Assembly (NCBI GenBank): GCA_048882485.1
Contig: JBHLRP010000002.1
Span: 150,606 to 214,605, forward strand
Length of the DNA stretch: 64,000 nt
Origin: Candidatus Thorarchaeota archaeon
GTDB taxonomy: Archaea > Asgardarchaeota > Thorarchaeia > Thorarchaeales > Thorarchaeaceae
Reading direction: 5' to 3'
This document shows, piece after piece, positions 1,850 to 13,971 of this stretch. The notes beneath the pieces were generated by a model. It was given only the letters and a program-made list of their open reading frames with translations. It had not been told where the DNA came from and did not search any database. How positions within the stretch are numbered: position 1 is the first letter of the stretch; each line of letters opens with the position of its first letter. The position numbers and the translations under genes are program-made.

Positions 1850-2662
1850 TTGAGTCCTGGAGTGGTTGAGAAGTTCAATCCCAAGAAAACCAGCGCACTG
1901 ACATCGCAGCGCAGCTTGGAGCGTGGTCATCGAAGAGGCAGGCATGTGCCTATTCATGAGATAACTCTAGAGGCGGTTCGAAAGAACGCCATCCAGTTTG
2001 GACTCGCCACTGATCTCCTCTACCAGGTCAGTGCAGGAAAGGAGGCTTCAATTTTCCTTGCCCTGTGGAACGGGCACCCCCTTATTTTGAAGGCCTACAG
2101 GTATTGGACGTCAGCTCAAGCGCGGAAGAAGAAGGGGTACTTTGCACCAACACAGATGGAGGCATTGGCTGCAAAAGAGTTCGACATTCTAAGCCTTTGC
2201 TATAAAGCAGGGGTTCATGTCCCAACACCAGTTGGCAGGGTTGGTAACTATGTCACGATGCGATTCATTGGAGATGGCATAGATACAGCCCCACAACTTC
2301 GTGATGCTACACTTGAAGACCCCGAAGAAGCATTGGACCAGATTCTCGATGACTACTTCTTGATGTATACAAAAGTGCATTATATTCATGGAGACCTCAG
2401 CAAATACAACATTCTTTGGTGGCAGGGACGAGCCTGGATTATTGATGTTCCTCAGGCATATCGTGTCGATGCTTGGGCTAATATGGAACAGGTAGAAACG
2501 CTGCTTTCGAGAGACATTCGCAACGTTCTATCGTATTTCAAGAGATACGGCATACGAAGAGATGCCGATTATATTGCGGAGCAATTCATCTCAGAGTACA
2601 CACCCCATAACCTACGGAATTTTCAAGAATCCGTCGGCACGCCTTTATGGCGTAGAAGGTGA
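1850..2662 (+). CDS. RIO-family atypical Ser/Thr kinase, paralog 2
   Basis: GKEASIF, HGDLSKYNIL, IIDVPQA; TTG start preceded by GGAGGTG RBS. Confidence 0.9.
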   Translation: MSPGVVEKFNPKKTSALTSQRSLERGHRRGRHVPIHEITLEAVRKNAIQFGLATDLLYQVSAGKEASIFLALWNGHPLILKAYRYWTSAQARKKKGYFAPTQMEALAAKEFDILSLCYKAGVHVPTPVGRVGNYVTMRFIGDGIDTAPQLRDATLEDPEEALDQILDDYFLMYTKVHYIHGDLSKYNILWWQGRAWIIDVPQAYRVDAWANMEQVETLLSRDIRNVLSYFKRYGIRRDADYIAEQFISEYTPHNLRNFQESVGTPLWRRR

Positions 2663-3703: not shown

Positions 3704-4417
3704 GTGAATCCACGTTTATCTCAATTTCTAGGTATCATTTTTCTCGTCATATGTCTTGCAATGTCCTATATCGTATACCAATCTACCGTTCAGGTTGGTG
3801 GAGATTTGGAGACGCTTATTACGTCGGGCATTATCGCATGGGGAATCCTTGGTTTGCCTGAATTGGCAATCGGACTTTGGCTCATCGTAAAGGGAACTCG
3901 AGATGCACGTGTAGGTGACATCTCTGGGAAGATTATTCCTCTTATACAGAAAGAAGGTCGAATTGGTGTGGCTGAAGCTGCAAAAGCGCTAGATGTAGGC
4001 CCCGCAGATGTCGCGGATGCCGTAGAGAAGCTAGCACGTAGACGTCTACCTCTCGTCTATCTAGATAGAGGGAAGAATGAGATTGTCAGTCCGTCTGCAG
4101 TATCCCTCGAAGAGAGTCTACTGCACCTGTTGCATGCACAGAGGCGAATGACTTTCGACCAAATCTCGAACGTTGCAAATGCAACCGATGATCAAATTGT
4201 TGAAGCTCTTGAACAGCTATCCAGTAAGGGCAGATTTAGGGGCACTATCGATAAGAATTCTCGAGTGGTCTATACATCGGAAGCAGTTGAGCAGCTGCCT
4301 AAGGCTGTTACTGCATGTCCAAATTGCGGTGGGCGACTTCCCGCTCCTATACTTCCTGGAGAAGAGGAATACTGCCCATTCTGCGGACATTCCATTGTCA
4401 ACCGCTTGGAAACCTAA
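3704..4417 (+). CDS. membrane protein with tandem PCI/DDRGK-like winged helices and C-terminal zinc ribbon
   Basis: Two N-terminal hydrophobic helices; two wHTH-like repeats (GRIGVAEAAKAL, RRMTFDQISNV...KGRFRGTID); CPNCG...CPFCG. Confidence 0.75.
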   Translation: MNPRLSQFLGIIFLVICLAMSYIVYQSTVQVGGDLETLITSGIIAWGILGLPELAIGLWLIVKGTRDARVGDISGKIIPLIQKEGRIGVAEAAKALDVGPADVADAVEKLARRRLPLVYLDRGKNEIVSPSAVSLEESLLHLLHAQRRMTFDQISNVANATDDQIVEALEQLSSKGRFRGTIDKNSRVVYTSEAVEQLPKAVTACPNCGGRLPAPILPGEEEYCPFCGHSIVNRLET

Positions 4418-4427
4418 TGCCGTGGTC

Positions 4428-5558
4428 TTATCTGTCCATATATGTCTCCCAGATGTCTAGAATATCACCATCAGAGGTTGCATAAAACCTACTCGAGAGA
4501 TTTGCTGCAAGGCATGAGTGGTTCGGCAGGATACTCACACGGTCTCCAGGAACGAGGCCTTTCAATGGAGACCCCTTGGCTATCTTCACTTTCCCATGTT
4601 CTTGAGAGAGTCCTGTTATGTCAGTGTTTTCTGCAAAGTCCCCTTCATGGTAATCGGAAATGACTTTCCCAAATCCACAATTCGGGAAGAGGTGCGTAGG
4701 TCCGGGATCCAATGAGAGTGCTGTTGCACCTGCATCGAGAATGATACGGTTTGGATATGCGCTTATGACACTCGAAAGGACTGACAGTGCGCAGTCGTAG
4801 GGCTTGCAAACACCTAGTGCCACTTGTGTATAGTCGAAGAAGACATAGCTACCTGGACGAACTTCTGTTATACCCTTCTTGATGGAGTCAGTCAACATCA
4901 TGGTGGGAGTTGAGCCGATGCTGACAATCTTTGGTGTAAGTGCTTTACTCCTTTTTCTCAAATCTCTGGCGAACTTGAGCATGACATTCTGTTCTTCCTC
5001 AGCGATAGCTTTGATTTCATCAATCGACCTGGCATAATAGGAATGGCCGCTATGGGTGAGGATTCCAGCGAAGTTCAGTCCTCGCGCCTTGTGGATTTTC
5101 TCAGCAAGAGCTAGGGAGCCCTTCCTCGTGGGATCTACACCACTTCGATGATAGCTGCAATCCACTTTGAGAAGTACATCTAGATCCTCCTTGGCTTTCC
5201 TGAATCTCGTCCTTAGTTCTTTGAGTGCAGCAGGATGGTCGATAATCACCCTAAATTTGACCTTGATGGCAAGTTTAGCGACGGAATTCATCTTGTCGGG
5301 GGCAAGGGGAACTGCCAACGTTATGTCATCAAATCCATTCTCTGCAAAGAACATTGCTTCGCCCATTGTTGATACTGTGATGCCCGACGCTCCATAGTTC
5401 CTTTGAATCTCCGCAATCTCAACACATTTGTGTGTCTTGACATGCGGTCTCAGAGCTACTTGATGTTCGCGTGCCTTATTTGCCATATTCTTGATGTTTT
5501 GGACGAGTCTGTCATAGTCAACCAAGGTCGCAGGCGTTATCAGATCATCAACGCGCAT
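4428..5558 (-). CDS. D-threonine aldolase/D-serine dehydratase-like PLP enzyme (alanine racemase fold)
   Basis: TPATLVD, LRPHVKTHK (PLP Lys), HSGHSY, GSTPT, EVRPGSYVFFD, SQEHG, PNHSC; ATG 5558 preferred over 5585. Confidence 0.9.
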   Translation of the reverse strand: MRVDDLITPATLVDYDRLVQNIKNMANKAREHQVALRPHVKTHKCVEIAEIQRNYGASGITVSTMGEAMFFAENGFDDITLAVPLAPDKMNSVAKLAIKVKFRVIIDHPAALKELRTRFRKAKEDLDVLLKVDCSYHRSGVDPTRKGSLALAEKIHKARGLNFAGILTHSGHSYYARSIDEIKAIAEEEQNVMLKFARDLRKRSKALTPKIVSIGSTPTMMLTDSIKKGITEVRPGSYVFFDYTQVALGVCKPYDCALSVLSSVISAYPNRIILDAGATALSLDPGPTHLFPNCGFGKVISDYHEGDFAENTDITGLSQEHGKVKIAKGSPLKGLVPGDRVSILPNHSCLAANLSSRFYATSDGDILDIWETYMDR

Positions 5559-5605
5559 GTCTTTTCCGAAGCAAAGGACCCTCAAAACCGTTGCTGTGCT
5601 GTCCC

Positions 5606-7027
5606 CTAAGTTATGCCATGTTGGTCGCCGCGGATTCTTCTTCTCAAACCAAGCCTTGCCTCATCTACCTTTGAAGCAATGCGACTCTTCTTGGGCCAAT
5701 ACTCCTTGATCTCCTCATATCCTTGGACATCCCAATACAATGGACAAGCTCCCAAGCAATAATCGAAATGAATACAGACCTTGCAGCCCTCAGCCGCAAA
5801 GTCTTTGCTCCTCCAGAATCTAGAGGCTCGATTGTTCCACACTCTCTCAAAGGATTCTTCTAGGAGATTGCCAACGGGGTCGCTGAAGCTCGAGCAAGGA
5901 AGAAGCCCGCCCTCGGGATCAACGGACAGTAAGCCATCACATGCGGCACAACTCTTTGCGCCCAGGCCCAGCGCAATAGGATTGAAAATGCATACTGGTG
6001 TAGGAGCATACCATACGAATTGCACTCCCTTCTTGTTTGCTCTCTTCTTCACTCCCTTCACAATCTCGCCAATGTCTTCATACTTGACCTGCAACTCGTC
6101 TCTCAACTTCGCGGCAGTGCCAGTATAGATGACCATGTTCATGCTGAAATAACTCAGTTCCAATTCATCGGCGATGAAATTAACCAGTTCTTCAAGTTTG
6201 TCAACATTAGGTCGACAGATTGTTGTATTGCAGTGAGTATAGATGTTCGTTTCTTTGAGGTTCTTGATTCCTTGAACTGTTTGCTCAAAGGATCCAGGCG
6301 CGCCTGCAATTTGGTCATGCGTCTTTGCATCAGGACCCTCGATTGATACCTGGGCACTGTTTAAATCCGCCTGGACTAGTCGTTCAACGAATTCTGGGTT
6401 TGCACATCGTCGGCCATTCGTGATGAGATTAACACGGAGTCCCTTTTCTCGGGCATAAGCTATCAGCTCAAATATGTCCTCGCGTAGAGTTGGCTCACCT
6501 CCGGTGAAAGAAAGACTTGGAACGTGGGCCTTGTCAACAATGGTGTCAATAATTCGCTTCACTTCGTCTGTGGTCATCTCTTTGGTTTCTCGATGCGGGG
6601 AGAATGCATAGCAGAATTGACATTCATTGTTACATCGATAAGTTAGTGCTATCTCGCTTAATACAGGATATTTGATATCTCCTTCCCCAAAGGGCACAAT
6701 TCTGGCGGTCTTGTATGAGTAGATGTTCTGATTTCCCATTACCATGCTCCGTAGGTCATCAACAAAGGCGGCTAGATCATTGAGCACTTGTTGTTCATCA
6801 GCTTCAAAGTTATTCACAAAGTAGTCTCTAACCTCTTTTGCTGTTGCACCATCAAGCAGCTTACGTAACATTGCAGTCCCAGTTTCGTTGAGGTGCATGA
6901 CCTTGTTAGGACGCAATATCAAGAGGTTATCTTGTGGTCTTACGAAGAAGTAATCCTTGACCTCATGCATGAAATTGGCTATCCAGCTGAGCTCCTCCAA
7001 TGTGTAGTCATACTGTGGCTGATGCAT
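5606..7027 (-). CDS. PqqD/RRE-radical SAM-SPASM peptide maturase
   Basis: N-terminal RRE-like LNETG..ML..LLDG.T..EV...; CNNECQFC (CxxxCxxC); FTGGEP; SPASM CAAC...PC...CKVC...CLGACP. Confidence 0.92.
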   Translation of the reverse strand: MHQPQYDYTLEELSWIANFMHEVKDYFFVRPQDNLLILRPNKVMHLNETGTAMLRKLLDGATAKEVRDYFVNNFEADEQQVLNDLAAFVDDLRSMVMGNQNIYSYKTARIVPFGEGDIKYPVLSEIALTYRCNNECQFCYAFSPHRETKEMTTDEVKRIIDTIVDKAHVPSLSFTGGEPTLREDIFELIAYAREKGLRVNLITNGRRCANPEFVERLVQADLNSAQVSIEGPDAKTHDQIAGAPGSFEQTVQGIKNLKETNIYTHCNTTICRPNVDKLEELVNFIADELELSYFSMNMVIYTGTAAKLRDELQVKYEDIGEIVKGVKKRANKKGVQFVWYAPTPVCIFNPIALGLGAKSCAACDGLLSVDPEGGLLPCSSFSDPVGNLLEESFERVWNNRASRFWRSKDFAAEGCKVCIHFDYCLGACPLYWDVQGYEEIKEYWPKKSRIASKVDEARLGLRRRIRGDQHGIT

Positions 7028-7054
7028 CGTTCGTGAGGGCTTAGCTGGAGGTGT

Positions 7055-7089
7055 CTTAAGGATTCGCCTACAACCTGAAAGGCTTATCA
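7055..7089. promoter_or_regulatory. back-to-back archaeal BRE/TATA-like promoters between the rSAM gene and the 7137 gene
   Basis: Minus strand CGAATC-CTTAAG about 28 nt before ATG 7027; plus strand GAAAGG-CTTATCA at 7077-7089. Confidence 0.45.
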
Positions 7090-7136
7090 GCCTCCATATA
7101 CGAGTACAGGCAAGACACGATGAAGGAGTGTGTCAT

Positions 7137-7529
7137 ATGAGTTCCGAGATAAAATTGCCATATGGAACAATCAGCAAGAAGAAGCTGATTATGCATTTCA
7201 GCGCCTTTGATATCGATTTGCCAGTGATTGCTGCTGGAATCAGAGAGAGGATGGATGTTCTGCGAGAGCTTGAGGTTGCTTTCGCAGGATTTGGAACTGA
7301 GATACCAGCAGAGATGACTGAGCAGACACCAGCCACGGTAAAGGCATTCTTTGAGTATGTGGGAAAGGGGACCGACGCTGATGTCATCCTCAAGCGCGTG
7401 TACCATCTCGTTTGGGGCGGCATGATTATGGAGTTTCCAGATCTTGACGAATGGGCGGCAGCCAAGGCGGACCTATCGAATTTAACGATTGCACAAGCAG
7501 ATGTACTGCGTGCGCAGCGTGGTGAATAA
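7137..7529 (+). CDS. hypothetical protein (130 aa)
   Basis: ATG 7137 after GGAGTG RBS; no recognised motif. Confidence 0.75.
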   Translation: MSSEIKLPYGTISKKKLIMHFSAFDIDLPVIAAGIRERMDVLRELEVAFAGFGTEIPAEMTEQTPATVKAFFEYVGKGTDADVILKRVYHLVWGGMIMEFPDLDEWAAAKADLSNLTIAQADVLRAQRGE

Positions 7530-7612
7530 TGGAGAACCCTTTGTGATGTGTTTAGTTGGAATTTCTAGCCAAAATGAATTGAATATGGGGACCGCTTGGA
7601 GTTGTTAATCAA

Positions 7613-9772
7613 TTGAAGCGCAACTTAACCCTGATGTTTACAATGGGTTTCATCCTTCTAGTCTTTGCTCCTGTATCCGTCAGTGGGACGACAATTAGCC
7701 AAAGCCCTGTTATCAACCTCGATAGCGTTTTCGTGGATGCGGTAGTTCTACCAAATGGCCGAATAAACGTCACATATTGGATAACCATATCCGTAATTGA
7801 GAATTCCCTGGGCGGATTCGATTTAGCGGGGATTCAAGAAACCACAATCTATGATTCCGATCGCGCGTACGCTGAGGTGGACGGAAACCGCTACAATCTG
7901 GTCGTTGGACAGCTCTCAAATGGCTACGCTCTAGACTGGACTCCCAGGACTCAAGCTGGAGAAACAGTCACAGTAGTATTTGGGTATTTCAGTACAAACA
8001 GGGTTCTAGAGATGACAACTGGAACATTTACTCTTGAGGGCTCTGGTCTGCAAGTTACCGGTGATTTGGCTGTTTTCAACTGGGCTCCAGTACAGTGGAG
8101 TGTGCCTCTTGATTATGAGAATGTGAGAGTAATTTATCCTATTGAAATGCAGGCTTCATGGATTACCGGGGAAGGTGGAATCACCTCAGAGGGAGCAGAT
8201 TATGCGGGCTATGTTGTGGATAGCCGTCAGAGGCTTGAAGACAACTTTGGCAGCTTCTTTCCCTTCGATGAGGAGAACCTTCTTGCCTATCCCTCGTCGG
8301 CTTCCGCTGACCCTCGATACTTCAGCGTTAGTCTAGGACATTCTAATTTGGGCTCCTATGACCACTTCCGTGTATTTCATTATACCAATTGGAGCTTCTA
8401 TGCTCCGTATCTCGAACCGGGCGCCCTAGACTATAACACTCCGGAGAATTTCAATGCAGATGCGAACACGGAATTCTCAATTGGTGTGGATGTATTCAAT
8501 ATCGGAGACGCCCCACTCAACGATGTCACAGTAACACTCTCTGTGCCAGACAATCTCACTTTGACTTCTGGCCAGGTCTCTACTTATATTGGAACACTCG
8601 ATGGCGGAGAGAACTCTCATTTGACTTACCATTTCATCCCCGATAACTTGCCAGAGATTCTTCCCCTCACGTTTCAAATCTCATCATCCAGTCTTAATAC
8701 AAGTGACTGGGTAACATTTACAGTCAACATCTATGTGCGGGAAGTTATTCCTCCCTTGATACCTCCGAATCTCCTGATTTGGGGATCTGCTGGAATAGCG
8801 GCCATAGCTGTTGTTTCTTTTGGCTATCGTCGAATAATGGGTGGATATGGAGCAACATGGGAGGTTGATGAAACAACAAAGGTGTATCAGAGCCCGGAGA
8901 TTGCCATCCAGACTTTAGGCACACCAGGAACTGTTGCAGATCTTGATCCTGTTGAGAGCGCATTCTTTGTCAATACAAATCGCAAGAAACTGGTGTCAAT
9001 GATTCTCATGTCCTGTGTGAAAAAAGGTGCAGTAAGGGTGATTTCAACGGACCCCTTACGCCTATCAGATACGGGCCTGAGGTTCGAGGACCCTACTTAC
9101 TATGAACAGATGTTTGTCGCCTCTATTAGCAACAATGAGCTTGACCCCGACAGGATTGATGACATGCTGGAAGAACTAGCTGAGAAGGTGCAAGAGAAGT
9201 CTTGGGATGCGGACTTCGAGGCTACTAAGACCCATCATGAGGAGATGGTCGATGGGGCCTGGGAAGACCTGGAAAGTGATCCAACACTTGATGGGCGTGT
9301 TGATTACTATTTCAATCGGAGGTATCACGACACTTGGGCTTGGTATTGGTTCTACATGCATCCTCATCATAACCGAAGAATCAGCCAAGTGTTCACACCT
9401 CCAGGGGGGACAATCGCTCCTCCAAGGGTACCTGATTGGTTTGGTCAGATTGCTGAGGCTGCTGGCCATTCAATTGGCGAAGTTGGACGTGTGGTTGGAG
9501 ATGTAGCTTCAACCACGGGCCAAATCATGACGAATGTAACAAACACCATTGGAGATGTCCTTTCGGGAGTTGGTAACATCATCCGAGAACCGCTGAAACC
9601 TATCTTGGAGGAGACCAGTCGTTGCGTGTCTCATGATGCCTGCCACTCTGCATGCGTTTCGCACGATGCATGTCATAGTGCCTGTCACAGCGCATGCCAT
9701 AGTGCTTGTGTATGCCATAGCGCCTGTCATAGTGCATGCCACAGTGCATGTGTTTCTGGAGGATTTAGATAA
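7613..9772 (+). CDS. single-pass membrane protein (DUF2207-like/Ig-like ectodomain) with C-terminal Cys/His repeat tail; putative radical SAM substrate
   Basis: Signal peptide; beta-rich ectodomain with CARDB-like VFNIGDAPLNDV; TM LLIWGSAGIAAIAVVSFGY followed by RR; tail CVSHDACHSAC...CVSGGFR. Confidence 0.85.
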   Translation: MKRNLTLMFTMGFILLVFAPVSVSGTTISQSPVINLDSVFVDAVVLPNGRINVTYWITISVIENSLGGFDLAGIQETTIYDSDRAYAEVDGNRYNLVVGQLSNGYALDWTPRTQAGETVTVVFGYFSTNRVLEMTTGTFTLEGSGLQVTGDLAVFNWAPVQWSVPLDYENVRVIYPIEMQASWITGEGGITSEGADYAGYVVDSRQRLEDNFGSFFPFDEENLLAYPSSASADPRYFSVSLGHSNLGSYDHFRVFHYTNWSFYAPYLEPGALDYNTPENFNADANTEFSIGVDVFNIGDAPLNDVTVTLSVPDNLTLTSGQVSTYIGTLDGGENSHLTYHFIPDNLPEILPLTFQISSSSLNTSDWVTFTVNIYVREVIPPLIPPNLLIWGSAGIAAIAVVSFGYRRIMGGYGATWEVDETTKVYQSPEIAIQTLGTPGTVADLDPVESAFFVNTNRKKLVSMILMSCVKKGAVRVISTDPLRLSDTGLRFEDPTYYEQMFVASISNNELDPDRIDDMLEELAEKVQEKSWDADFEATKTHHEEMVDGAWEDLESDPTLDGRVDYYFNRRYHDTWAWYWFYMHPHHNRRISQVFTPPGGTIAPPRVPDWFGQIAEAAGHSIGEVGRVVGDVASTTGQIMTNVTNTIGDVLSGVGNIIREPLKPILEETSRCVSHDACHSACVSHDACHSACHSACHSACVCHSACHSACHSACVSGGFR
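9623..9769 (+). repeat. coding repeat: CHSA x7 and CVSHDA x2 (11 Cys, 9 His in 49 aa)
   Basis: Direct translation; all seven CHSA units use different codon combinations. Confidence 0.95.
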
Positions 9773-10539
9773 TGGGAGAAACCATCAAGACGATATTTCA
9801 TTTGAGCGATATCCACATTGGAGAACAAGGAGTGTCTTTAGGCGATTTCCGCGAAGTAATTGAGAGTATTGAGAAGCGTGCTCCGCATATGACCTCGCCT
9901 CTCATTCTTATCACGGGCGATCTTACAGGGGAGGGACTTAGAGAGGAGTATGAAGCATTCTCTAATGTTGTATCTGGCATAGAAACTCCTCTCATAATCG
10001 TGCCTGGAAACCATGACGAGCGCAATTACGGTGCTGCACACTTCGAGGAGATGTTTGGAGAGCGTTTTAAGACCTACGAGGACGAAGCTATTGCGTTGTA
10101 TGCAGCTGACAGTGCAGAACCAGACAATGATGCAGGGCATGTTGGTCGGACTAAGTATAATGAGATACATGACTTTCTCGGAGGGGCGAAAGAGAAGGTG
10201 CGCATATTCGCGTTACATCATCACCTGATACCGGTCCCAAACACTGGGAGGGAACACAATGTTGTGGAGGATTCTGGTGCTGTCTTGGGACTTTTGAATC
10301 GAACGCAATGCTCGTTGGTCCTAAATGGTCACCGTCATGTCCCTTGGATGTGGAATCTGAATGATATGATTATATACACGACAGGTACCCTGCTCTCCCG
10401 GCGTGTTCGTGGAGCTACGACTCAAGTCTATACGCTTATTGAGCTTACCAAGGCCGATGTGACATTTACCTTGGTTGAGAAGTCAGGTTCTGCGAGCCTA
10501 TTCTCTCGTGCCGAGCTTCGTCCTGCTGTCCTAGGCTAA
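9772..10539 (+). CDS. calcineurin-like metallophosphoesterase (CpdA/Icc-like)
   Basis: HLSDIH, TGDLT, PGNHD, HHH, GHRH; TAATG stop/start overlap with the upstream gene. Confidence 0.9.
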   Translation: MGETIKTIFHLSDIHIGEQGVSLGDFREVIESIEKRAPHMTSPLILITGDLTGEGLREEYEAFSNVVSGIETPLIIVPGNHDERNYGAAHFEEMFGERFKTYEDEAIALYAADSAEPDNDAGHVGRTKYNEIHDFLGGAKEKVRIFALHHHLIPVPNTGREHNVVEDSGAVLGLLNRTQCSLVLNGHRHVPWMWNLNDMIIYTTGTLLSRRVRGATTQVYTLIELTKADVTFTLVEKSGSASLFSRAELRPAVLG

Positions 10540-12573: not shown

Positions 12574-13971
12574 CTATTCGTTAGTTTGAGCTCTTGAGTA
12601 TGCACCCTCAAGTTCTCTTTCCATAGCCGATGGAATAACAGTCTTGGTGAAGTCGCCATCTTTCTTTCTGATGAAGACGTAGAGCAACGTGACATATACA
12701 ATGTCAAACGTGCGCAATACTAGTGATACTGGAATTCCTGCTAGAACTGCAAAGACAACTCCTAGTACTATGGTTGCAATTAAGTCTCCAGCAAAGGCAA
12801 CCCAGCCTACGACTGCTCCTCCAAGGGCAAAACCAAGGAAGAATATGACAGCCAGAACACCAAAGCCCCATCTTACTGCGGTTTCTTTAATCATGACATC
12901 TACGAAGTTGTCCTTAACGAGACCTGCACTTCGCTTGATGCCGTCCCTCGCTCCAAGCTCTTCCGCCACCATCGCAGGGATTGTGAAGTAGTTTATCAGG
13001 AACCAAACATAGCTTATGATTCCACCTGCGACCCTGCCAACTGCTGCTCCTCCCACACCTCCGACTTCTCTGCCCAAACGCTCAAGAATCATCCTGATGA
13101 TAACGATTAGCACACTCAATAAGCTCAAGACAATGATGCCAGTTATGACACCAAGAGATGACCTGACGCCATCGCCGAGGTCAGGATCTCTGCCACGCAT
13201 ATAGAGGTAGACCATAGCAGATGATGTTCCATAAGCTAAATTGTAGAAGAATATTGTAGCAAAGAGATACAGGACAATCCCAATGCCCGCAACCCATCCA
13301 GTTTCAATGGTTAGGTCTTGAGCACCTGAGATTATCTGCATTGCATTTCCTCCAGACAAGACATCAATTGAATAGAATGCAATGCCTCCGAACATGACAG
13401 CTGAAATTAGGGTGAAGACCATTACCAGCGTTGGCGGAACGAATACACCCTTTTCATCTAGACATACCTGCCCAGTCAGTTTGATGATCTCACCTGCACG
13501 GCGGATTCTATCTCGAAACACCGTGAACAGTAGAAGTGTGAGGAACAGCGTAAAGAGACCTGGTATTAAGACTGGCCAAGCAAAGGGACCTCCAGTAACC
13601 AAAATCAGAATTGGAATGGCTAGTGTCATTAAGTTCATGAAGAACGCGCCAATGTAGATCAGTGTCCCTCCCAATCTCCTTGCGAGCCATGAGGCAGCAT
13701 ACGCCACAAAGAGACTCAGTAGGATGATCCCAAACACAATGGCTGCAATTGCTATCGCGGCATCAGTCGGTGATATCACTAGGCTCACGACTGAAAGGAT
13801 GTCGTTGATGGCATTCATCACCTGGGTTCCATAAGAAGCCCAGAGCCCCATCAATGAATAGATGCCTGCTGCGAAGAAAGCTCCAAGAACGATTACAACT
13901 CCAAGCACTGCTTTTCCGTGGCTTGGATAGTTTTGATTATCATGATATTCTATCACATCAGTACGTGCCAA
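12574..13971 (-). CDS. polytopic membrane protein, choline transporter-like (SLC44/Pns1)/DUF6159-like
   Basis: About 10 TM; RIRRAGEIIKLTGQV, LLSVLIVIIRMILE, NYFTIPAMVAEELGARDGIKRSAGLV. Confidence 0.7.
   Translation of the reverse strand: MARTDVIEYHDNQNYPSHGKAVLGVVIVLGAFFAAGIYSLMGLWASYGTQVMNAINDILSVVSLVISPTDAAIAIAAIVFGIILLSLFVAYAASWLARRLGGTLIYIGAFFMNLMTLAIPILILVTGGPFAWPVLIPGLFTLFLTLLLFTVFRDRIRRAGEIIKLTGQVCLDEKGVFVPPTLVMVFTLISAVMFGGIAFYSIDVLSGGNAMQIISGAQDLTIETGWVAGIGIVLYLFATIFFYNLAYGTSSAMVYLYMRGRDPDLGDGVRSSLGVITGIIVLSLLSVLIVIIRMILERLGREVGGVGGAAVGRVAGGIISYVWFLINYFTIPAMVAEELGARDGIKRSAGLVKDNFVDVMIKETAVRWGFGVLAVIFFLGFALGGAVVGWVAFAGDLIATIVLGVVFAVLAGIPVSLVLRTFDIVYVTLLYVFIRKKDGDFTKTVIPSAMERELEGAYSRAQTNE

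Follow-up and report, generated by a model that had tools for sequence, protein, structure and literature searches.

In this study, we show how two neighbouring genes in a 64,000-nucleotide stretch of a Candidatus Thorarchaeota genome (contig JBHLRP010000002.1, positions 150,606 to 214,605; hereafter the window) form a conserved pair that is not specific to Asgard archaea. One encodes a radical S-adenosylmethionine (rSAM) enzyme of 473 amino acids (5606..7027, minus strand), with a SPASM domain and a recognition element (RRE) of the type named after peptides that are made by ribosomes and modified after translation (RiPPs). The other encodes a 719-amino-acid membrane protein (7613..9772, plus strand), predicted to be single-pass, that ends in a cysteine-rich repeat. 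Both in Asgard archaea and in many bacterial phyla the pair is found repeatedly, and it is therefore probably the sign of a chemical modification, made on a whole membrane protein, that is as yet undescribed. The reading we favour, with moderate confidence, is that the RRE docks at the membrane and that the enzyme thioether-crosslinks the tail on the intact membrane protein. The host, whose genome of 3.96 Mb is 90.5% complete, belongs to the Thorarchaeota, and the closest homologs are named Thorarchaeota proteins.

To follow the pair across genomes, GTDB was scanned at the DNA level for the (CHxA)n-CVS tail, without reference to the body of the protein, a scan that gave at least 120 loci; the enzyme was sought within the same 8-kb tile as the tail motif. 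In 119 of the 120 matches listed the motif ends an open reading frame (ORF); in the remaining one (L163) it falls by chance within an unrelated frame, and this locus was discarded. Upstream of the motif, 110 of the 119 listed loci show the homologous cytoplasmic domain, the tile starting too close in the other nine, and an enzyme of the same clade is present in the tile at 103 listed loci (102 by threshold, plus the partial match L085). In bacteria, this enzyme is nearly always the gene next to the tail protein. Sixteen listed loci have no enzyme in the tile; four of these are of the Thorarchaeota type, where it is expected upstream, outside the tile, and five others were tested, all five genomes carrying the enzyme elsewhere. 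Carriers include Chloroflexota, Spirochaetota, Myxococcota, Planctomycetota, Omnitrophota, Bacillota, Acidobacteriota, Thermodesulfobacteriota, WOR-3 and others, with Desulfobulbus alkaliphilus (L121) as a cultured representative. On viral contigs, 23 pattern matches yielded no homolog upon inspection of the motif-bearing frames. An initial annotation of the window had proposed co-occurrence of homologs as a test, and they do co-occur, adjacent to one another across many phyla; it had also presented the system as that of an Asgard-like archaeon, which is right for the host, but the system is widespread in bacteria and no Asgard speciality.

Among 400 Asgard genomes, the protein profile was found in 121 and the enzyme profile in 137. 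By hand count, both are present in 114, the protein only in 7, the enzyme only in 23 and neither in 256; related genomes are not independent cases in these numbers, and incomplete genomes are frequent among them. Within the window's own family, 46 of the 53 genomes with both genes have them at most 10 kb apart on one contig (hand count). Two loci carry interrupted copies, through either decay or assembly error: at L325 (G023:C14) both the enzyme and the tail-protein gene are broken, and at L327 (G198:C572) a second enzyme copy with a stop lies between the tail gene and the intact copy.

The membrane protein has hydrophobic stretches at residues ~5-23 (signal-like) and ~383-405, the latter followed by two arginines; this agrees with the topology proposed earlier, which is a prediction, and places the part after the membrane helix in the cytoplasm. 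The predicted helix itself (residues ~387-405; 8771..8827, plus strand) has a hydropathy of 1.68, and that of homologs is mostly stronger (2.2-3.0), usually with basic residues after it. The 49-residue C-terminal tail (residues 671-719; 9623..9772, plus strand), a putative core of CHxA repeats ending in CVSGGFR, reads as first described, with 11 Cys and 9 His against a single Cys in the rest of the protein. Across 114 tails, the unit is C-H-x-A with a variable x (HSA 755, HDA 91, HNA 18, HGA 13), and 112 of them are 7-9 units long. Tails from 14 Thorarchaeota rows (13 genomes) share 97.8% protein identity and 44% identical codons at identical residues, while the Ser codons of the repeat mix TCN and AGY. 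The repeat is therefore kept at the protein level, and an origin as a DNA slippage repeat was rejected on this codon diversity. Between the conserved Trp of the cytoplasmic domain and the first CHxAC lies a linker of 82-212 residues (median 108), a length that would allow the tail to extend to the active site.

That no short precursor lies nearby, as the initial annotation had observed, was confirmed for the six frames of the genome, in which no free CHxA peptide was found, and no free-standing CHxA precursor occurs in the 110 assessable GTDB loci. An internal start at Met639, which would give a free precursor of 81 residues, was rejected as unlikely because the product would be without the conserved recognition motif described below, and because the region is not conserved outside Thorarchaeota. 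These results bear on whether the protein could be a true RiPP precursor with a giant membrane-anchored leader, its tail being modified and then cut by a housekeeping protease, with the free peptide as product. The order of leader motif first and core last is indeed that of RiPP precursors, and the tail length is tightly set (7-9 units) where the linker is variable. However, besides the lack of a free-standing precursor, no conserved cleavage site was found before the tail, and no protease or transporter family recurs in the cassettes (240 loci, limited flank length), nor a conserved immunity gene, although a housekeeping protease could still act; furthermore, conservation extends to the ectodomain and the cytoplasmic domain themselves. 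We therefore regard release of a free peptide as quite unlikely.

As for the body of the protein, the cytoplasmic domain (residues ~444-556; 8942..9280, plus strand) folds with high confidence when modelled alone with AlphaFold2, and is DUF2207_C/TIGR04222-like. A fold search returned GOLPH3 (Z 5.6, root-mean-square deviation 4.1 Å, 113 aligned) and Vps74 (Z 4.7), an assignment that was rejected with Z below the level to trust. The ectodomain includes a CARDB-like Ig domain. While the 719-residue protein belongs to no named family and has no match over cut-off to the Pfam DUF2207 models (PF09972/PF20990), PF20990 is detected in 2 of 26 homologs (E 0.0067), PF09972 is recorded on 4 of 89, and the ectodomain profile matches one DUF2207 protein (E 3.4e-6). 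As such, the body is a distant DUF2207/TIGR04222 relative, below all cut-offs, and the label ‘receptor-like’ that it had been given is unproven. In one homolog (L108), CHSA repeats are followed by a Gly-rich end like that of DUF2207 proteins. Two others from Promethearchaeota (P0030 and P0061) carry a zinc-finger-like insert and have neither signal nor membrane helix (for P0030 by hydropathy); they are a possible soluble version of the substrate, and their tails are hybrids of CHSN repeats and (CA)n.

All three domains of the enzyme exceed their Pfam cut-offs: PqqD (PF05402) with 40.8 bits (cut-off 23.4), Radical_SAM with 101 and SPASM with 27.6 (cut-off 21.5). The RRE (residues ~25-96; 6740..6955, minus strand) consists of three strands followed by three helices in the AlphaFold2 model (predicted local distance difference test score, pLDDT, 93.8), and its residues R30, D33, P40 and N47 are near-invariant among 83 relatives. 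The CxxxCxxC motif (C132, C136 and C139, then Tyr140; 6611..6634, minus strand) is invariant in all 83, as is each of seven SPASM cysteines, C346, C360, C378, C415, C418, C424 and C428 (5744..5992, minus strand), which presumably act as cluster ligands. The domains named in the initial annotation are thus present, except that the SPASM domain is not full, its usual last Cys being absent. Because this Cys is missing and Glu439 is kept near its place in 75 of the 83 relatives, one auxiliary cluster would have a non-Cys or open site.

The enzyme reaches the cut-off of none of its best 25 NCBIfam families. It scores 155.7 bits against AhbD and 104.8, 146.8 and 116 against the AhbC/NirJ models (cut-offs 500-650), 125.6 against PqqE (cut-off 381), 118.3 against MftC (cut-off 265) and 110.7 against the StsB model (cut-off 625). 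In a FastTree tree it clusters with other tail-associated enzymes, and no direction of transfer is claimed because the tree is FastTree only, with long-branch outgroups. That AhbD and NirJ2 are the best NCBIfam matches, and that CHSA-CH can be read as CxxxCH, might suggest a cofactor enzyme (AhbC-, AhbD-, NirJ- or PqqE-like) in an incidental neighbourhood, or repeats that bind heme c. Such scores are far under the cut-offs (500 for both, 381 for PqqE), however, and the enzyme has an RRE; moreover, the adjacency holds across many phyla, no heme, pqq or mft genes are among the recurring neighbour families, and the tail is predicted to be cytoplasmic, with counterparts in a sister subfamily that have no His at all. 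This explanation, which the initial annotation had named as one that would refute its own, is largely refuted and now very improbable.

The sister subfamily had been mentioned in the initial annotation as bacterial membrane proteins ending in CACAC..GGGR next to rSAM/SPASM genes. Such proteins exist, and a metagenome scan for the (CA)n tail finds the enzyme in 104 of 120 loci, and in 35 of the 36 with long flanks; these (CA)n-GGGR (hereafter CAC) proteins are homologous to the CHxA-tail protein, and Cys and Ala are all that the two kinds of tail have in common. A search with the cytoplasmic domain as a profile, tail excluded, gave 595 clusters at 50% identity. Among the new matches with a recognisable end, 49 are of the (CA)n-GGGR type and 5 of the CHxA type; a further 68 were fragments or frameshifted sequences and 2 had Gly-rich ends of uncertain status. 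The enzyme tree splits by tail type, with the 42 CAC rows on one branch (support 99).

In CAC cassettes, a small gene for a Zn-ribbon membrane protein is added upstream, and a Cys-less rSAM paralog or a methyltransferase is often present. This paralog, a further rSAM/SPASM protein that has 0-2 Cys and is devoid of CxxxCxxC, follows the rSAM gene at L215, L247, L267, L206, L234 and L300, and is a likely inactive partner. In the CAC cassettes at L264 and L287, the membrane-protein gene is present twice in tandem. The last gene of a bacterial cassette usually encodes either a membrane protein (family C) or a coiled-coil protein (family D). Neither was found in the present genome (G000), and the bacterial partner genes of families C, D and F have no Pfam family over cut-off. 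At L149 and L179, family D matches very long ORFs (~800-1000 codons) that overlap the end of the tail protein and the enzyme region, as either a fusion or an alternative frame. At L069 and L106, the tail gene is directly followed by family C with no enzyme between them, the enzyme being elsewhere in the genome.

So which chemistry would such an enzyme perform? Its closest solved relatives are the peptide maturases SkfB, SuiB, PqqE, CteB and TigE, of which SkfB is the closest (E 9.5e-39 in one comparison, rank 1 with Foldseek in another), an enzyme that has a twitch domain and not a two-cluster SPASM domain. Three landmarks, a Tyr after CxxxCxxC, a Thr before GGE and the Gln-x-Ser motif, match SkfB. 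In the published scheme of residues in catalytic proximity, CteB has Phe112 and His363-Gln364 (PMC10288494), and residues of this CteB/PapB type are not found here, where Tyr140 and Ser379-Ser380 occupy the two unambiguous landmarks. Position 379, after the auxiliary Cys, is Ser or Ala among the CHxA enzymes and Gln among the CAC enzymes, so that the Gln of SkfB is matched by the latter but not by the present enzyme. Taken together, the landmark residues lean to sactisynthase-like chemistry.

A different product from the same docking and the same substrate would be a His(C2)-Ala(Cβ) cyclophane for each H-x-A, or another non-thioether change such as epimerisation, leaving the Cys free. HaaB links His1-C2 to Ala3-Cβ on an Ω1-X2-X3 pattern (PMC11499958), to which the H-x-A with variable x of the 114 tails conforms. 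On the other hand, the sister clade, whose active-site landmarks are nearly identical, goes with (CA)n tails devoid of His, some tails (P0030 and P0061) combine the two kinds of repeat, and no triceptide-synthase family is among the best 25 NCBIfam matches of the enzyme. It is rather improbable, in our estimation, that the product is of this kind.

Recruitment of the enzyme was initially placed in the last ~120 residues of the membrane protein. Conservation and modelling point elsewhere, to residues 422-435 directly after the membrane helix, as the likely RRE docking site. Here, the candidate recognition sequence Y425-x-x-P428-x-I-x-I (8885..8917, plus strand), an internal leader, follows the pattern [W/Y]-x-x-P-x-[I/L]-x-[V/I]. 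Pro428, one of two invariant columns in the cytoplasmic domain, is present in 100 of 100 CHxA and 97 of 97 CAC homologs, and the aromatic residue at 425 in 99 of 100 and 96 of 97, respectively. W/YxxP has experimental support as an RRE motif in lasso peptide systems and StsA, where it lies as a strand alongside β3 within the α3/β3 cleft (PMC12710340). By itself, the motif segment has no secondary structure in AlphaFold2, and the one DUF2207 protein examined is without the W/YxxP-x-I-x-V strand and has a Cys-free Gly/Ser tail.

We modelled the whole enzyme in complex with residues 408-562, leaving out the tail. The model reaches an interface score (interaction prediction score from aligned errors, ipSAE) of 0.78 versus 0.00 for the best control. 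The mark used is attained by 58 of 80 solved pairs and by 2 of 110 mismatched ones; between runs, at least 92% of the contacts agree, and the pLDDT of the partner is at least 77. In the model, the motif pairs with RRE strand 3, with RRE-side contacts at 44-50 and 80-91, and the best-defined contacts are those of residues 427-433 with RRE residues 45-53 and 84-91 and with the linker at 107-111, as in the canonical mode of binding. Helix 517-539 of the folded domain forms another patch of contacts, against the enzyme surface at 331-357 and 423.

These findings suggest the following course of events. Genomics shows enzyme and membrane protein to be a conserved pair, in which a dedicated RiPP-type maturase would act on a whole membrane protein, on the cytoplasmic side of its helix. 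The β3/α3 cleft of the RRE would hold the [W/Y]xxP-x-I-x-V strand next to the membrane, as motif and model indicate, with the long helix of the folded domain resting on the enzyme surface, and the variable linker would then let the C-terminal CHxA repeat reach the active site. There, the 5’-deoxyadenosyl radical would abstract hydrogen and the Cys sulfurs would be cross-linked, yielding products of n x -2 Da with thioethers that are most likely S-Cα, as in SkfB-like sactisynthases. The modified tail may remain attached and form a rigid module that displays His or binds metal, in the place of the Gly-rich tail of DUF2207 relatives. Put more broadly, this would be a system widespread in archaea and bacteria by which the enzyme is recruited through an internal juxtamembrane YxxP motif, and multiple cross-links are made in the cytoplasmic tail of an intact single-pass protein, giving a protein-borne metal-binding or signalling module in two chemistries (CHxA and CA); on this wider proposal our confidence is evenly balanced.

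The same docking could, however, serve a tail that is never modified. It would then be a metal, Fe-S or sulfur-carrying module, for instance as a ligand of the open auxiliary cluster site, with the enzyme acting on another substrate and the membrane protein tethering or regulating it. The 11 Cys and 9 His in 49 residues and the CxC arrays of the sister family generally suit metal binding, the SPASM domain is without its last Cys, and further conserved cassette genes (families C, D, E and Z, the Cys-less rSAM paralog and the methyltransferase) could be the true substrate or partner. However, an RRE together with W/YxxP is a hallmark of substrate engagement (PMC12710340), and the near-invariant Ala and terminal residues of the tail exceed what a metal sponge needs. 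Furthermore, the accessory genes vary by lineage, families C and D not being found in this very genome, whereas enzyme and tail protein are constant. We hold an unmodified tail to be unlikely.

Returning to the cross-linking of the tail, several observations weigh against it. Arrays of Cys/His and of CxC are classic metal sites. The RRE is below the Pfam cut-off, or gives no match, in two bacterial enzymes. The complex model may owe its pass to likeness, because solved RRE-YxxP complexes exist, and is no measure of affinity; the correspondence between enzyme clade and tail type counts as a single event because it is one deep split. Some genomes carry only one of the partners: G004 has an intact tail and no enzyme was found in it (genome 77% complete), and in the Asgard family f12 the enzyme is present in 19 of 19 genomes and the protein was found in 8 of 19, unlinked to it, while four enzyme-only genomes gave no tail pattern. 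The strict motif regular expression missed 3 of 12 Asgard proteins.

Within the window, the initial annotation had delimited the system at 5606-10539 and regarded the enzyme and the 719-residue protein as a divergent pair. The two genes do belong to it and are on opposite strands. Still, they are not directly head to head, because a conserved ORF of 130 residues (7137..7529, plus strand), initially overlooked, lies between them, directly upstream of the membrane-protein gene. This accessory gene stands in front of that for the membrane protein in most Thorarchaeota and at seven bacterial loci, and therefore belongs to some cassettes; its product is of no known family, with no Pfam match, one weak NCBIfam match, and an Atlas search that gave no family, the top match (0.85) being a lead only. 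At the other end, the metallophosphoesterase (9772..10539, plus strand; PF00149, 57 bits), translationally coupled through TAATG, is kept as neighbour in Thorarchaeota only, at 19 of 30 relatives’ loci. Because it is seen only at archaeal loci in the GTDB set, it was rejected as part of the core cassette, and is probably not core.

Further out, positions 996-1832 and 1850-2662 (plus strand) encode tandem RIO1-family kinase paralogs (PF01163, 124 and 122 bits). A membrane protein at 3704-4417 (plus strand) has two winged-helix domains (PCI/DDRGK-like, below cut-off) and a C-terminal zinc ribbon, by which it loosely recalls the Zn-ribbon membrane gene of CAC cassettes, a resemblance only. Directly downstream of the rSAM gene and on the same strand, 4428-5585 (minus strand) encodes a pyridoxal phosphate enzyme with the DSD1/alanine-racemase fold, which is not among the recurring bacterial neighbour families. 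Finally, a multi-pass membrane protein at 12574-13971 (minus strand; DUF6159, with weak choline-transporter-like similarity) is found near the cassette in Thorarchaeota.

Should the proposed modification be correct, it would extend RiPP logic to membrane proteins, and explain a class of apparently orphan RRE-SPASM enzymes, which precursor-mining tools would miss because these look for short ORFs. It would also offer a handle on the function of the DUF2207-like fold. DUF2207/TIGR04222 proteins, among the feature and shape neighbours in the Atlas, share the layout of ectodomain, membrane helix, cytoplasmic domain and low-complexity tail. We found no published description of the system in the literature searched, which covered few subscription journals.

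How, then, does it compare with what is known? As in sacti- and ranthipeptides, a predicted RRE recognition sequence lies upstream of a Cys-rich core, but neither a short free precursor gene nor a cluster protease or transporter was found. The i,i+4 Cys repeat of the tail resembles the CXXX-repeat rSAM targets (TIGR04117; PF27846, tSAM_targ_Cxxx_rpt). PF27846 is recorded on several homologs (precomputed records, in part weak) and TIGR04117 matches two homolog tails (E ~6e-4, 19.7-19.8 bits versus a cut-off of 50), whereas the tail of the present protein matches neither; TIGR04117, moreover, is a peptide model of 98 positions. TIGR04115, which we take to be the model of their cognate enzyme, is not among the best 25 NCBIfam matches. 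The His-triceptide synthases HaaB and HtkB share the H-x-A substrate motif, but act on short precursors (PMC11499958), and no family-level similarity of the enzyme to them was found. SkfB and StsB/StsC likewise act on short free precursors rather than on a whole membrane protein (PMC10288494, PMC12710340), although StsA has a WxxP RRE motif and a Cys2/Cys4/Cys6 core like that of the sister (CA)n tails (PMC12710340).

Closer in working are two systems in which a whole protein is modified. CrpC of Methanococcus voltae was shown to install thioethers in CrpA (TIGR04463; PMC13692751, 2026), and, as here, an archaeal RRE-rSAM-SPASM enzyme with seven SPASM Cys is found beside a large partner with C-terminal Cys repeats. 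However, CrpA, of 29 kDa, has its leader at the N-terminus and repeats of 17 residues (TIGR04463 layout 17/34), compared to a putative substrate here that is a 719-residue membrane protein with an internal motif, a folded domain in between and four-residue CHxA repeats, and TIGR04463 is not among the best 25 NCBIfam matches of the enzyme. QhpD makes RRE-dependent rSAM/SPASM thioethers in QhpC, a protein that stays a protein (summarised in PMC13692751). In QhpC, a small subunit whose leader is N-terminal, the links are Cys-Asp/Glu, whereas the acceptors available here are mostly His, Ser and Ala, and no qhp genes are among the recurring neighbours. We conclude that the system would work like QhpD/QhpC and CrpC/CrpA, while it is not a demonstrated member of either, nor of the sacti/ranthipeptide or CXXX-repeat classes. 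The novelty that the initial annotation saw in modification of a whole protein thus has precedents, but the rSAM thioether formation on whole proteins that we found in the literature concerns soluble substrates with N-terminal leaders, QhpC and CrpA (PMC13692751); new here would be that the substrate is a membrane protein, that its recognition motif is internal and that a folded domain separates this motif from the core.

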